From a virus: a stretch of 10,879 nt of DNA. A program made the position numbers and the translations under genes. The DNA lies in UHGV virus genome UHGV-0120148. One strand, written 5' to 3'. Shown one piece after another: positions 3,163 through 10,879 of this stretch. The notes under the pieces are model-generated. The model saw only the letters and a program-made list of their open reading frames with translations, was not told where the DNA came from and did not search any database. Each line of letters starts with the position of its first letter. The first letter of the stretch is position 1.

Positions 3163-3763
3163 ACCAGCGCGAAGACGATGTAAAAACGAAGAATGTCGGG
3201 AATGGTTTCACCCTGCATTCGCCAATCAGTGGTGGTGCTCTCCAGAGTGTGGAACCAAGATAGCACTCGAACGACGAAGCAAAGAACGCGAAAAAGCGGA
3301 AAAGGCAGCAGAGAAGAAACGACGAGAGGAGCAGAAACAGAAAGATAAACTTAAGATTCGAAAACTCGCCTTAAAGCCCCGCAGTTACTGGATTAAACAA
3401 GCCCAACAAGCCGTAAACGCCTTCATCAGAGAAAGAGACCGCGACTTACCATGTATCTCGTGCGGAACGCTCACGTCTGCTCAGTGGGATGCCGGACATT
3501 ACCGGACAACTGCTGCGGCACCTCAACTCCGATTTGATGAACGCAATATTCACAAGCAATGCGTGGTGTGCAACCAGCACAAAAGCGGAAATCTCGTTCC
3601 GTATCGCGTCGAACTGATTAATCGCATCGGGCAGGAAGCAGTAGACGAAATCGAATCAAACCATAACCGCCATCGCTGGACTGTCGAAGAGTGCAGGGCC
3701 ATCAAGGCGGAGTATCAGCAGAAACTCAAAGACCTGCGAAACAGCAGAAGTGAGGCCGCATGA
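3155..3763 (+). CDS. ninG: NinG / Rap recombination-associated protein (202 aa)
   Basis: Near-identical to lambda NinG from recall ([22 protein letters not shown]..., Cys clusters); ATG overlaps the ninF stop. Confidence 0.9.
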
Positions 3764-3966
3764 CGTTCTCAGTAAAAACCATTCCAGACATGCTCGTTGA
3801 AGCATACGGAAACCAGACAGAAGTAGCACGCAGACTGAAATGTAGTCGCGGTACGGTCAGAAAATACGTTGATGATAAAGACGGGAAAATGCACGCCATC
3901 GTCAACGACGTTCTCATGGTTCATCGCGGATGGAGTGAAAGAGATGCGCTATTACGAAAGAATTGA
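3760..3966 (+). CDS. ninH: NinH (68 aa, HTH DNA-binding)
   Basis: [37 protein letters not shown]... matches lambda NinH from recall; ATGA overlap with the ninG stop. Confidence 0.9.
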
Positions 3967-5502: not shown

Positions 5503-5574
5503 GGGTCAGTCGTATAAAGGTCATTACGGAAGGCTGTTAACCTTCTTATCGTGGTTCGAGTCCACGCTGCCCCC
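5503..5574 (+). tRNA. tRNA-like gene, anticodon GTT (Asn) by hand fold; atypical (one acceptor-stem mismatch, no encoded CCA); possibly a pseudo-tRNA
   Basis: Hand fold: acceptor gggtcag/ctgcccc (6 of 7 pairs), D-loop with GG, anticodon stem gaagg/ccttc with loop ctGTTaa, T-stem cgtgg/ccacg with T-loop ttcgagt (TTCRANY consensus). Confidence 0.4.
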
Positions 5575-5583
5575 TCCAAATAT

Positions 5584-5659
5584 GCTGGTTTAGCTCCAAT
5601 GGTAGAGCAGTCGCCTTGTAAGCGAATGGGTAGCGGTTCAAGTCCGTTAACCAGCACCA
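5584..5659 (+). tRNA. tRNA, anticodon TGT (Thr) by hand fold, with encoded CCA
   Basis: Perfect 7-bp acceptor stem gctggtt/aaccagc, D-arm gctc-caatggta-gagc, anticodon loop ctTGTaa, T-stem agcgg/ccgtt with T-loop ttcaagt, discriminator A plus CCA. Confidence 0.6.
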
Positions 5660-5993: not shown

Positions 5994-6490
5994 TGCCTCC
6001 ATCATTACGAAAAGCCGTTGCTGCGGCTATTGGTGGCGGGGCTATTGCTATAGCATCTGTGTTAATCACTGGCCCAAGTGGTAACGATGGTCTGGAAGGT
6101 GTGAGACATAATCCTTACAAAGACATAGTTGGTGTATGGACTGTATGTTACGGGCATACAGGAAAAGACATCATTCCCGGTAAAACGTATACCGAAGCAG
6201 AGTGCAAAGCCCTCCTGAATAAAGACCTTGCCACTGTCGCCAGACAAATTAACCCGTACATCAAAGTCGATATACCGGAAACAACGCGCGGCGCTCTTTA
6301 CTCGTTCGTCTACAACGTGGGTGCTGGCAATTTCAGAACATCGACGCTTCTTCGCAAAATCAACCAGGGCGATATCAAAGGCGCATGTGACCAGCTACGT
6401 CGCTGGACATACGCTGGCGGTAAGCAATGGAAAGGGCTGATGACTCGCCGTGAGATTGAGCGTGAAGTCTGTTTGTGGGGGCAACAATGA
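5993..6490 (+). CDS. R: SAR endolysin R (phage-21-type lysozyme, 165 aa)
   Basis: N-terminal Gly/Ala-rich signal-anchor-release domain [20 protein letters not shown] followed by a T4-lysozyme-like catalytic region; start overlaps the S stop (TAATG). Confidence 0.88.
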
Positions 6491-7088: not shown

Positions 7089-8546
7089 ATGAATACATCT
7101 CATGTAAGAGTTGTTACTCATATGTGTGGGTTCCTGGTTTGGCTCTATAGTCTTTCAATGTTGCCACCAATGGTTGTAGCATTGTTTTATAAAGAAAAAA
7201 GCCTGTTCGTTTTCTTTATAACTTTCGTTATATTTTTTTGCATTGGTGGCGGAGCGTGGTATACAACTAAGAAATCTGGCATTCAATTACGTACCCGTGA
7301 TGGGTTTATTATAATTGTAATGTTTTGGATTTTGTTTTCTGTTATTAGTGCATTCCCTTTATGGATTGACTCAGAACTTAATTTAACGTTCATTGATGCT
7401 CTGTTTGAAGGGGTTTCTGGAATAACAACAACAGGAGCAACTGTAATTGATGATGTTAGTTCATTACCTCGGGCATATTTGTACTATCGGTCACAGTTAA
7501 ATTTTATAGGTGGTTTAGGAGTTATTGTTCTGGCGGTTGCTGTATTGCCATTATTGGGTATTGGTGGTACAAAGCTTTATCAGTCAGAAATGCCGGGGCC
7601 ATTTAAGGATGACAAACTCACTCCCCGCCTGGCCGATACGTCACGGACACTGTGGATAACTTATTCTTTATTAGGTATTGCTTGTATTGTCTGTTATAGA
7701 CTTGCAGGAATGCCTTTGTTTGATGCTATTTGTCACGGGATTTCCACAGTTTCGCTTGGTGGTTTCTCAACTCATAGCGAGAGTATCGGATATTTTAATA
7801 ACTATTTGGTTGAGCTGGTGGCTGGTTCTTTTTCCCTGCTATCGGCTTTCAACTTCACTCTTTGGTATATTGTTATTAGCAGGAAAACGATAAAACCTTT
7901 AATCAGAGATATTGAACTTCGTTTCTTTCTGTTAATAGCCTTAGGGGTGATCATTGTTACCTCTTTCCAGGTCTGGCATATAGGTATGTATGACTTGCAT
8001 GGAAGTTTTATTCATTCGTTTTTTCTTGCCAGCTCCATGCTCACTGATAATGGTTTAGCTACGCAGGATTATGCAAACTGGCCCACGCACACGATAGTGT
8101 TTTTGCTGTCGTCAAGTTTCTTTGGGGGATGTATAGGTTCAACTTGTGGTGGAATTAAGTCACTTCGATTTCTTATACTTTTCAAACAAAGCAAACACGA
8201 GATAAATCAGCTTTCTCATCCCAGAGCGTTGTTGAGTGTAAATGTAGGAGGGAAGATAGTTACAGATCGTGTAATGAGGTCTGTATGGAGTTTCTTTTTT
8301 CTTTATACTCTCTTCACGGTGTTTTTTATACTGGTGTTAAATGGTATGGGATATGATTTTCTTACATCATTTGCAACAGTGGCTGCATGTATTAATAATA
8401 TGGGATTAGGTTTTGGGGCTACTGCATCGTCATTCGGAGTGCTTAATGACATTGCAAAATATTTAATGTGCATAGCTATGATTCTTGGTCGCCTTGAAAT
8501 TTATCCTGTTATTATATTGTTTTCAGGTTTTTTTTGGCGCTCCTAA
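7089..8546 (+). CDS. trkG: TrkG/TrkH-family potassium uptake membrane protein (485 aa); prophage moron
   Basis: Polytopic membrane protein matching E. coli Rac-prophage TrkG from MNTSHVRVVTHMCGFLV... Strongly AT-rich relative to the flanking phage genes. An alternative TTG start at 7071 (6 codons upstream) has a better-placed RBS (aaggtgg). Confidence 0.88.
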   Translation: MNTSHVRVVTHMCGFLVWLYSLSMLPPMVVALFYKEKSLFVFFITFVIFFCIGGGAWYTTKKSGIQLRTRDGFIIIVMFWILFSVISAFPLWIDSELNLTFIDALFEGVSGITTTGATVIDDVSSLPRAYLYYRSQLNFIGGLGVIVLAVAVLPLLGIGGTKLYQSEMPGPFKDDKLTPRLADTSRTLWITYSLLGIACIVCYRLAGMPLFDAICHGISTVSLGGFSTHSESIGYFNNYLVELVAGSFSLLSAFNFTLWYIVISRKTIKPLIRDIELRFFLLIALGVIIVTSFQVWHIGMYDLHGSFIHSFFLASSMLTDNGLATQDYANWPTHTIVFLLSSSFFGGCIGSTCGGIKSLRFLILFKQSKHEINQLSHPRALLSVNVGGKIVTDRVMRSVWSFFFLYTLFTVFFILVLNGMGYDFLTSFATVAACINNMGLGFGATASSFGVLNDIAKYLMCIAMILGRLEIYPVIILFSGFFWRS

Positions 8547-8683: not shown

Positions 8684-9115
8684 ATGAGCGAGAAATTAAA
8701 GATAGTCTATCGCCCATTACAAGAATTGTCACCGTATGCGCACAACGCCAGGACGCACAGTACTGAGCAGGTGGCACAACTGGTAGAAAGTATTAAGCAA
8801 TTCGGCTGGACTAATCCGGTGCTGATTGACGAAAAGGGCGAAATTATTGCGGGTCACGGTCGTGTTATGGCGGCTGAAATGCTCAAAATGGATTCTGTTC
8901 CGGTCATTGTTCTGTCTGGCCTGACGGATGAGCAGAAAAAGGCGTACCGCCTGGCAGATAATCGCCTACCGATGAATGCTGGCTGGGATGAAGATCTGTT
9001 GCGGATGGAGCTGTCGGACCTAATCAATGCTGATTTTGATGTCTCCCTGACAGGCTTCGGCCCGACAGAAATTGATGAACTGTTGACGGATGTTTTGCCC
9101 GGTATCGGGCCTTAA
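8684..9115 (+). CDS. ParB-like nuclease domain protein (143 aa), probably a truncated N-terminal part of a larger protein
   Basis: ParB/Srx-like N-terminal domain features (IIAGHGRVMAA, RLADN) and the ...SLTGFGPTEIDELL linker that in phage ParB-methyltransferase fusions precedes a methylase domain; here the ORF stops about 15 codons later, 3 nt from the convergent tfa stop. Confidence 0.65.
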   Translation: MSEKLKIVYRPLQELSPYAHNARTHSTEQVAQLVESIKQFGWTNPVLIDEKGEIIAGHGRVMAAEMLKMDSVPVIVLSGLTDEQKKAYRLADNRLPMNAGWDEDLLRMELSDLINADFDVSLTGFGPTEIDELLTDVLPGIGP

Positions 9116-9118
9116 TTT

Positions 9119-9646
9119 TTACTCTGGTTTTTGTGGCCATTCAGGATTTGCCGTATCCACACGGCTGACCAGAACACTGTAGCGTTCCCATGCTTCCAGT
9201 CGTGTGCGTTCCTCGTCTGTTGCCATATTCAGCCTGACAGCGCGCTCCAGCGGCAAAATTACGGATTCAGCTTCGGAAAGCAAAGCTGCCTTCTGTAATT
9301 CCGCCTGTTGTTGCTGTTCATCTGCCGTATAAATCCGTTTAACCACAGCTCCGTCCCTAAACATCCACTTACTGGAATCATCAGCGCAGCGGTTGGCTGT
9401 AATATCTGGAACCTCAACGACGCTATAACCTTCAGGGTTAAGCGTGGAGGCATCTTTGGTGATGGCGACAATAATATTATTTGCATCGTAAACAATCTTT
9501 ATTGTGTCTGGCTGAAAGTTTTTCACTTCCTCATACCAGTTTTTTCCGTCTTCGGACCATAACCAGATAACATCAAAATTCTTTGTTAGCTGATATTGTT
9601 CTTTTGTTTTTGGATTTCCAGACTTAATATTTTTTAAATGCTGCAT
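9119..9646 (-). CDS. tfa: Tail fibre assembly protein (Tfa / Mu U' type, 175 aa)
   Basis: C-terminal conserved Tfa motif ...[25 protein letters not shown]...; located immediately downstream of the tail-fibre variable segment on the same strand. Confidence 0.8.
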
Positions 9647-9649
9647 AAA

Positions 9650-10654
9650 TTACACCTGTACGACGTTATACCATGTGCCATTGATGTATTTTTGTATTGG
9701 TCTGAATACTGCCGGATCATCGCCATCAACTGCACCGATAATGCCAAGCCCCGTAATTGCATGACCTGATTTCTCATACATCACGCCTTTTTGCATAGTC
9801 TGAACAACACGTGTACCAAGTCGGACATCTCTCACATAACGTGAGTCAAAATTACCATAATTGCCGGGAATAACTTGCGCACCGCAAAGCCAGTTGCCAT
9901 TGTTGTCCATGTACGCCTGACCATCGGTGCCATTGGCTGTCCTTGAGTTATTAATCATGTAGATGCCAAATTGCTTATTCCCCAGTCCACCAATCATAAA
10001 TTTGCGATCAGCGTGGTCCTGACGAAGTAATGCCTGCGCACCATCGGTGGATACCGCATTGCGTCCCAAAATAACATTCTGGTCACGCATATGAATCCAC
10101 ATGCCGGTACTACTGTTAATTGCAAAACGGTTTGCAAATATATCCCCTGTAACATCAAGACCATGCCCCATGCTTATCCGACCAGTTCTGAGATTAAGCG
10201 TAAAGGGGCGTAGTGGCCCTATATCACCATTTTCTCCCTCATTCTCTCGTGTAGGGATGATATGCAGGCATTCTTCAGAACGACGAAAAATAGCACCAAA
10301 AGATGAATTAAATATCCTCAGTGCATTGACTGTCGATATTTTTACTTCACTGCTGAAAAGGGCTTTAACAAGGACAGACAAAGCATCCCATTTAAGAGTC
10401 ATCAGGTCTTTTGTTGTGGTGCTCTGGCGGCTTCTCCATTTGAAATATTCATTGCCGTTGTCGCCTGTTTCAAACCACATGTATGAATCAGTGTCGCTGT
10501 CGGCATTATTTTTAAAACCAATCTTTGCCCAGTCAGTATTTCTAATCCAGGCAAGGATTGAGTCGTTTTCAAAAGTAAGCCCACCGGACAAGGTATCGCC
10601 ATTCTTTTGCACGGCGTTCCTGGCCCTGTTTACCGTTTCCTGTAAACCGAGGTT
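9650..10654 (-). CDS. Tail fibre protein, variable C-terminal segment (Sv'-type) lacking the constant N-terminal part; silent cassette
   Basis: Open frame on the minus strand runs from inside the gix-like site (encoding NLGLQETVNRARNA, as in Mu/P1/e14 tail-fibre junctions) to the stop at 9650. No start codon or N-terminal constant domain is present; the ORF-track start at 10612 is an internal GTG. Gly/Asn-rich, fibre-like composition. Confidence 0.7.
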   Translation of the reverse strand, partial: NLGLQETVNRARNAVQKNGDTLSGGLTFENDSILAWIRNTDWAKIGFKNNADSDTDSYMWFETGDNGNEYFKWRSRQSTTTKDLMTLKWDALSVLVKALFSSEVKISTVNALRIFNSSFGAIFRRSEECLHIIPTRENEGENGDIGPLRPFTLNLRTGRISMGHGLDVTGDIFANRFAINSSTGMWIHMRDQNVILGRNAVSTDGAQALLRQDHADRKFMIGGLGNKQFGIYMINNSRTANGTDGQAYMDNNGNWLCGAQVIPGNYGNFDSRYVRDVRLGTRVVQTMQKGVMYEKSGHAITGLGIIGAVDGDDPAVFRPIQKYINGTWYNVVQV

Positions 10655-10662
10655 TTAGATAA
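10637..10662. other. Site-specific inversion crossover site (gix/pix-like, 26 bp) for a Gin/Pin-family invertase
   Basis: ttcctgtaaaccgaggttttagataa differs at one position from the Mu gix site as I recall it (TTCCTGTAAACCGAGGTTTTGGATAA); positioned between the 5' end of the silent tail-fibre segment and the invertase gene. Confidence 0.7.
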
Positions 10663-10716
10663 TGGCGGTTTCTGGCCTGCATGGCATGATTTGTGCTTTT
10701 GGACGGGAGATTCAGC

Positions 10717-10842
10717 GTGCTGATTGGCTATGTAAGGGTATCAACAAATGACCAGAATACAGACCTGCAACGAAACGCTCTTGTTTGTGCAGGATGTGAA
10801 CAAATATTTGAAGATAAATTAAGCGGGCACTGTTGCAAATAG
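10717..10842 (+). pseudogene. pin: Pin/Gin-family DNA invertase, N-terminal fragment (about 37 native codons) interrupted by IS26
   Basis: Translation [37 protein letters not shown] matches the serine-recombinase N-terminus of Pin/Gin (catalytic Ser in YVRVSTNDQ); the frame then reads into the IS26 inverted repeat and stops (HCCK*). Start appears to be GTG. Confidence 0.8.
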
Positions 10843-10879
10843 TCGGTGGTGATAAACTTATCATCCCCTTTTGCTGATG
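10826..10879 (+). mobile_element. IS26 (IS6 family), left terminal inverted repeat and first about 54 bp; continues beyond the window
   Basis: ggcactgttgcaaatagtcggtggtgataaacttatcatccccttttgctgatg matches the IS26 left end from recall, beginning with the 14-bp IR GGCACTGTTGCAAA; tnpA itself lies beyond the window. Confidence 0.85.

Follow-up and report, generated by a model that had tools for sequence, protein, structure and literature searches.

Gene content of the locus

The window analysed here is the whole stretch of 10,879 nucleotides, a complete metagenome contig (ENA ERZ1756014, NODE_3147) of the SPAdes style with a coverage of 3.1. It belongs to a lambdoid prophage, of which it covers the early-right, late-regulatory and lysis regions, with genes for a DnaB-like helicase, NinB, NinG, a NinI-type phosphatase and the antiterminator Q, two tRNAs, lysis genes (P21-type holin, lysozyme and Rz) and the moron trkG, after which a ParB-like gene comes next. 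From that gene to the end of the contig, the following features are recognized.

8684-9115, plus strand: truncated ParB-like gene (ynaK-type), 140 native codons followed by three new ones (IGP) and a stop
9097-9110: deletion junction, with microhomology between GCCCGGTA (ParB-like gene) and GCCCGCTA
9119-9646, minus strand: tfa, a Mu U-type tail-fibre assembly chaperone of 175 aa, intact, in the silent U' position
9245-9320, minus strand: mosaic patch in tfa, 76 bp with 15 substitutions (2 amino acid changes) relative to otherwise identical relatives
9650-10654, minus strand: variable C-terminal tail-fibre (receptor-binding) module of the Mu S/P1 S/P2 H type, lacking the constant N-terminal part
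10637-10662: gix-type crossover site TTCCTGTAAACCGAGGTTTTAGATAA, 26 bp, in the gixR position, with a central GA dinucleotide
10717-10826, plus strand: remnant of a Gin-like serine invertase (pin'), first 37 codons, with the catalytic-serine motif VRVSTNDQ
10826-10879, plus strand: left end of IS26 (IRL GGCACTGTTGCAAA...), interrupting pin'; the contig terminates here

The product of tfa belongs to the Caudovirales tail-fibre assembly proteins, both by its domain score (Pfam Caudo_TAP, PF02413, E=6.6e-36; 123.8 bits against a cut-off of 22.1) and by its full-length similarity to Mu U, with 92% amino acid identity across 175 aa and an end-to-end match to PDB 5YVQ_B (residues 1-175, E=6e-105). 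The frame of the neighboring fibre module is opened by a TAA stop within the crossover-site sequence TTATCTAAAACCTCGGTTTACAGGAA, and no start codon of its own is present at that point. The encoded protein shows 70.4% amino acid identity over 338 aligned positions to residues 169-504 of Mu S, which is exactly the portion downstream of gixL, and it matches PHROG tail-fibre families as well as residues 169-502 of the solved Mu fibre (PDB 5YVQ_A, E=3e-149); this similarity over the full variable part of Mu S places it among the receptor-binding modules of Mu S, P1 S and P2 H. At the DNA level, the fibre/tfa block is 85-91% identical to S/U of Mu, D108, SfMu, P1 and P7 and to H/G of P2-like phages. 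A minus-strand fibre C-terminus that opens inside a gix-like site and is followed by tfa, as the sequence-only reading had described, is thus present.

A single crossover site and a truncated invertase

In a working system of this kind, a serine invertase of the Gin family and the host protein Fis flip a segment of ~3 kb between inverted 26-bp gix sites, and inversion alternately fuses the constant N-terminus of the fibre to one of two variable C-termini, each with its own chaperone gene. For a switch of the family to work, four components are required: a pair of 26-bp sites in inverted orientation, the complete serine invertase, an enhancer in cis to which Fis binds, and the constant fibre part (PMC3798978, PMC3575834).

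Of the 26 positions of the crossover site in the window, 25 agree with Mu gixR and one differs. The gixR of L007, an intact cassette that a P2-like prophage in E. coli O145 RM8995-C1 carries, has exactly the sequence of the site in the window. In 200 shuffles of the window, no match was obtained. A search of both strands of the window for a second site, at up to three and then up to six mismatches, found none, and the core AAACCNNGGTTT occurs once, without a second copy. At six mismatches, the same search recovers two sites each in Mu and in L007. A general search of the window for inverted repeats returned pairs at the level expected by chance. The claim that the window holds no inverted copy of the site is therefore upheld, and one site is present where a functional invertase switch requires two in inverted orientation. 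The lone site could still be bound by other Gin-family invertases in the same cell.

The invertase remnant starts with a GTG codon 54 bp past the crossover site, the spacer between the two aligns with the gixR-gin spacer of Mu, and the 37 retained codons specify a sequence 100% identical to residues 1-37 of Mu Gin, with a match to the resolvase N-terminal domain (E=6e-8). Full-length homologues have 193-195 aa; a switch requires a protein of ~190 aa that comprises the catalytic and the C-terminal DNA-binding domain, of which the window retains only this N-terminal stub. The sequence that follows the remnant is the end of IS26: its terminal inverted repeat lies at the break, and in the 12 records that match the window through position 10879, for example TC24, the annotated IS26 transposase comes next. 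The same is seen in S43, where 10826-10879 matches the IS26 end with the annotated transposase beyond it. In E2, an IS26-free relative, pin sequence continues where the window has IS26. The contig stops 54 nt into the left end of the element, which is a typical repeat break. An outward promoter of IS26 that would drive Sv' was considered as a candidate and rejected, as a consensus scan returned none and a manual reading gave 8 of 12 matches, with a threshold of 9 of 12.

Three relatives that lack IS26 (AR_0085, PK8568 and E2) already have an invertase of only 64 aa (95% identical to Gin), whose 64 codons run on into the 3' end of a different tfa. IS26 thus entered an invertase gene that was no longer functional, which agrees with the earlier view that the switch is invertase-dead and adds a second lesion to it. 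About 176 bp of native DNA are left between the center of gix and IS26. The Fis-bound enhancer of such systems, ~65 bp long, acts in cis; in Hin it lies ~100 bp away from one of the sites, and in Mu it is situated within the invertase gene (PMC3798978).

The ParB-like gene and the deletion junction

On the other side of the fibre module, the ORFs to the left of tfa are the truncated ParB-like gene, trkG and the lysis genes, and no constant fibre part is found among them, so that the expressed half of the cassette is absent from the window, as had been proposed. The ParB-like ORF, which has a Pfam ParB_N match, ends 3 bp short of the tfa stop. That the two abut had been noted before; what can be added is that the ORF is itself truncated by a deletion. 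It is cut at codon 140 of 263 and covers positions 3-141 of the 217 positions of PHROG 620, whereas its 263-aa homologue in PK8568 covers 3-217. The three additional codons and the stop were created by the deletion. Of the two junction sequences, GCCCGCTA is the left arm of a hairpin located between convergent chaperone genes. The BLAST segments of homology to PK8568 and AR_0085 on the left side end at 9104, and those on the right side start at 9097, leaving an overlap of 9097-9104, and PK8568 has 823 extra bp at the junction (L002 6806-7628). A terminator scan showed that a terminator-like hairpin is re-formed at 9097-9110, with the stem GCCCGGTATCGGGC followed by a T-run.

An exact match to the 81-bp junction sequence is present in 22 of 5,426 complete E. 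coli genomes and in 15 PLSDB plasmids, nine of them from E. coli and six from other species; as it is identical in all of these, the junction is real.

Relatives of the cassette and a probable order of decay

The intact reference cassette of L007 consists, in this order, of a fibre gene with an internal gixL, a chaperone gene, an opposite-strand chaperone gene, an opposite-strand Sv', gixR and a gene for a 195-aa invertase. Its two sites are inverted relative to each other and gixL differs by 2 mismatches; the constant-part fibre gene is annotated as frameshifted in that strain. Positions 9097-10827 of the window are colinear with the right half of this cassette (U'-Sv'-gixR-pin) at 95.4% DNA identity, and at the protein level the silent-position chaperone and the silent Sv' of L007 are 95.4% and 96.7% identical to their counterparts in the window. 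The window holds ~1.5 kb of the ~3.05-kb segment and lacks gixL, the constant-part fibre gene, the second chaperone gene and the full invertase that L007 has. Homology, architecture and relatives therefore support the earlier interpretation of the region as the silent Sv'-U' arrangement that lies beside an invertase.

Two partly deleted remnants, one at the Rac site and one at the lambda attachment site, are intermediate between L007 and the window. The first, in PK8568 (L002), has a ParB-like gene that is complete (263 aa) and, behind it, 27 codons of its neighbor. There a junction leads into a plus-strand chaperone gene of which the last 122 codons are left, their product being 97.5% identical to Mu U'; then follow tfa and Sv', both on the minus strand, gix and pin', as in the window, and directly downstream of pin' lie the 3' end of a K-12-type tfaR and pinR, the latter on the other strand. 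The U'-type fragment on the opposite strand is direct evidence that the other half of the cassette once existed, and that the lost half in the expressed orientation was of the Mu S'/U' type. The second, in AR_0085 (L001), has a different, independent pair of deletions, which spared part of the tail gene J and extend into tfa. E2 has the same junction between the ParB-like gene and tfa as the window, and the whole of its prophage remnant is located between ybhC and bioA; a single gix site is present in the 20.5 kb that span this entire remnant and its host flanks. With one Sv'-tfa pair in the window, the junction, the U'-type fragment of PK8568 and the two-site cassette of L007 all agree with the proposition that the switch is half-deleted.

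From these relatives we infer an order of decay. The first step would have been a truncation of the invertase gene to ~64 codons, with part of another tfa becoming attached to it. Next, a deletion mediated by microhomology would have brought codon 140 of the ParB-like gene up to the hairpin that separates the chaperone genes; lost in this step would be gixL, Sv and U, together with the constant fibre part and the genes for morphogenesis. Finally, IS26 would have inserted at codon 37 of the invertase remnant.

What is retained in the window amounts to U' (tfa), Sv' and gixR with the 37 invertase codons. A working switch would have two variable C-termini with their chaperones in opposite orientation, and a constant N-terminal part fused in frame across the crossover site; the window has a single Sv'-tfa pair and no such fusion, and a scan for promoters upstream of Sv', near the IS26 end, predicted no promoter-like site. 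With one site, no invertase and neither a constant part nor a promoter, the module should be unable to invert or to be expressed as a fibre. A locked and presumably unexpressed relic accounts best for what the sequence shows. Very probably, the region is a non-functional fossil of the silent right half of a Mu G-type invertible host-range cassette, left at the right end of a defective lambdoid trkG prophage of E. coli.

Both the tfa and the fibre ORF are intact, with zero frameshifts. As frameshifts are expected in a long-dead relic, either the decay is recent or the module has been refreshed by recombination. The patch in tfa, if real, would suggest the latter.

Comparison with known invertible fibre cassettes

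The sequence-only reading had assigned the cassette to the type of the Mu G segment or of the e14 P segment; the first part of this assignment stands and the second does not. The Mu G segment and its Gin invertase, as well as those of phage D108, share with the window the order and orientation U'(-), Sv'(-), gixR, gin(+). The Mu segment is complete, whereas the window has the right half only, without gixL, Sc, Sv and U, and with an invertase that is cut at codon 37 where Mu Gin is whole. The switch of Mu is carried by a Mu-like phage and that of the window by a defective lambdoid prophage. Moreover, the silent position, which in Mu holds the S'/U' allele, is occupied in the window by an allele of the Mu S/U (G+) type.

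The C segment of P1 and P7 with its invertase Cin is the same kind of switch as the ancestor cassette of the window, and Sv/U of P1 or Sv'/U' of P7 have 88% DNA identity to 85-94% of the region. These systems are complete, and their invertase is placed differently relative to the segment.

The P segment of e14 in E. coli K-12, with its invertase PinE, is alike in architecture (stfP-tfaP / tfaE-stfE / pinE), and PinE is 89% identical over the 37 invertase residues retained in the window. As a relative at the sequence level it was rejected: alignments with StfE, StfP and TfaP gave no significant similarity, the similarity of TfaE to the chaperone is marginal (30%, E=2e-4), and e14 contains no site within seven mismatches of the window gix.

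The Rac prophage of K-12 (stfR-tfaR-pinR) has trkG-ynaK upstream, as in the window, but keeps the expressed half and a full invertase. It contains no gix-like site within seven mismatches, and StfR, TfaR and PinR were rejected as a source, having just 27-45% amino acid identity to the proteins of the window. In the cryptic prophage Qin of K-12, the layout pinQ-tfaQ-stfQ' represents a further decayed cassette. Defective lambdoid prophages of K-12 thus provide familiar precedents for invertible fibre cassettes that are frozen in a partial state. In the literature, a search on pinR, tfaR and stfR gave nothing bearing on the decay of such cassettes, and the most promising matches to a search for a plasmid-borne trkG/IS26 module were unrelated mentions.

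Alternative explanations

Gin-family invertases cross-complement. A first alternative is therefore that the switch still works, with the partner site and the constant fibre gene off the contig and inversion provided in trans by another invertase of the Gin/Pin family; in addition to cross-complementation, the identity of the gix site to that of the intact L007 cassette would agree with this, as would the end of the contig in IS26, which puts the flank beyond it outside the window. The geometry of the cassette, however, would place the partner half past the 3' end of tfa, where the window has the truncated ParB-like gene, trkG and 9 kb of early and lysis genes without a second site, and neither is an stf constant region found on this side. 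E2, which has the same junction without IS26, shows a single site across 20.5 kb, host flanks included. Given this evidence, we regard a functional switch as very unlikely.

As a second alternative, the arrangement could wholly or in part be a chimera produced by metagenome assembly at 3x coverage. The contig is SPAdes-style with low coverage, and in a search with the whole window against complete E. coli genomes and plasmids no record covered more than 61% of it. Upstream of ~6467, the window diverges from its relatives and follows a different lambdoid allele; this divergence could be due to real recombination or to a chimera and lies outside the orphan-cassette finding. The patch in tfa points in the same direction. 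All 15 differences from the identical copies are confined to 9245-9320, over 9216-9349 the sequence does not differ at any position (100% identity) from gene G of a P2-like prophage present in three genomes, and, in an index of gene positions, the exact patched protein is encoded on this contig alone. The patch may be due to gene conversion, or it may be an artefact of assembly at low (3x) coverage, such as an assembler bubble. From 6467 to the end of the window, with the exception of the patch, the sequence is nevertheless identical base for base to closed genomes and plasmids, including the ParB'-tfa and the IS26 junctions. The orphan arrangement is therefore real and not an artefact of assembly, and there is very little likelihood that a chimera accounts for it.

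A third alternative is exaptation, in which IS26 or read-through would express a truncated fibre tip (320 aa, from a GTG at 10612) together with the chaperone, for example for receptor masking or as a decoy. Such a role would account for the intactness of both ORFs and for the travel of the module on conjugative plasmids of several genera; the GTG has an AGGA upstream, and a TTGCAA hexamer faces outward at the IS26 end. Against it, the promoter scan found no acceptable pair of -35 and -10 elements at the IS26 end, the IS26-free relatives hold the same intact ORFs, and the carriage on plasmids is explained by hitch-hiking of the whole remnant beside IS26. We know of no precedent for the exaptation of such a fibre remnant and consider it highly improbable here.

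Least probable of all, and already contradicted by the present evidence, is a 5'-truncated, non-invertible fibre operon of the P2 H/G type that lies next to a recombinase fragment by coincidence: P2-like prophages with a non-invertible H-G pair do have close tfa sequences and a degenerate gix-like sequence (3 mismatches) inside H, but the homology in the window ends exactly at a perfect gix, beyond which the leader and the codons of gin are arranged as in Mu, the block is 95% colinear with U'-Sv'-gixR-pin of an intact two-site cassette, and the relative PK8568 holds a chaperone fragment of the U' type on the opposite strand.

Significance and distribution

The decayed Mu G-type half-cassette is an ordinary genomic fossil, neither a working system nor a new one. 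Its interest is that of a clean example of how an invertible host-range switch decays in cryptic prophages, with three datable lesions and sequenced intermediates, and its importance is otherwise little. In annotation and in scans for invertible DNA, a lone gix with an invertase stub should not be counted as a phase-variable locus.

The orphan module and its chaperone gene may not be inert: intact, and carried beside IS26 on conjugative plasmids of Escherichia, Klebsiella, Enterobacter and Citrobacter, they would both give tail-fibre sequence to resident and incoming phages and take it up from them, as a mobile store. We consider this role improbable; if it were true, the P2-type patch of 76-134 bp in tfa would be a trace of such an exchange.

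The plasmids that carry the exact junction come from four genera, the hosts other than E. coli being Citrobacter freundii, Klebsiella michiganensis, K. quasipneumoniae, Enterobacter kobei and E. roggenkampii, and on them the entire remnant, from int to pin', adjoins IS26. Having been captured beside this element, the trkG prophage remnant is now spread among several genera of enterobacteria by large conjugative plasmids, and this IS26-linked distribution makes it a convenient marker of IS26-mediated capture of chromosomal DNA by plasmids.

Plasmid carriage and the IS26 junction

The entire defective prophage adjoins IS26 on large conjugative plasmids, including pRHBSTW-00409_2 and 0H26 unnamed 1 (loci L008 and L009), and its content there runs from int and xis to rrrD', Rz, trkG, the truncated ParB-like gene ParB', the tail-fibre chaperone gene tfa, the variable fibre module Sv' and the Gin-like invertase stub pin'. 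The carrier plasmids are of the IncHI1B/IncF/IncA types, with E. coli, Klebsiella, Enterobacter and Citrobacter as hosts. In the chromosomes of the relatives S43 and TC24 (loci L003 and L005), plasmid genes come after the IS26. The arrangement looks like the capture, via IS26, of a trkG-bearing chromosomal prophage remnant. A segment of trkG at 8369-8386 (ATTTGCAACAGTGGCTGC) is complementary at 16 of 18 positions to the inverted-repeat end of IS26 at 10823-10840, probably by chance.

Mosaic structure of the contig

The window is a complete metagenome contig (ENA ERZ1756014 NODE_3147, coverage 3.1), the end of which falls 54 nt inside IS26. Among the complete E. coli genomes and the PLSDB plasmids searched, no single record covered more than 61% of it. 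Left of position ~6467, which falls in the 3' portion of the lysozyme gene, the window follows the allele of another lambdoid prophage and not that of the trkG-module relatives; this switch, placed at ~6313-6467, is the breakpoint of either a recombination or a chimera. On a smaller scale, 15 clustered substitutions, only two amino acids being altered by them, separate tfa at 9245-9320 from relatives that are otherwise identical, and three E. coli genomes carry a P2-like prophage whose G gene matches the tract 9216-9349 at 100% identity. This patch could reflect gene conversion or, given the low coverage, an assembly bubble.

Three further prophage genes were recognized:

5503-5574, tRNA-Asn(GTT), between antiterminator Q and holin
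5584-5659, tRNA-Thr(TGT), between antiterminator Q and holin
3760-3966, NinH homologue

Many lambdoid and Stx-type prophages likewise carry tRNA genes between antiterminator Q and holin. Lambda NinH is described as a Fis mimic in PMC7166090.

Remnants of other fibre cassettes

In the Rac locus of E. coli PK8568 (L002, 9249-10254), a 64-amino-acid stub of a Gin-like invertase is joined to the 3'-terminal stretch of a K-12-type tfaR, and pinR comes next, intact and on the opposite strand; the locus is a head-to-tail join of remnants from two different invertible-fibre cassettes. The P2-like prophage of CFSAN051542 (L010) contains, at 13287-13312, a degenerate sequence resembling the gix crossover site, with three mismatches, located at the boundary between the constant and variable parts of its non-invertible H tail-fibre gene; this sequence may be the scar of a one-time crossover site.
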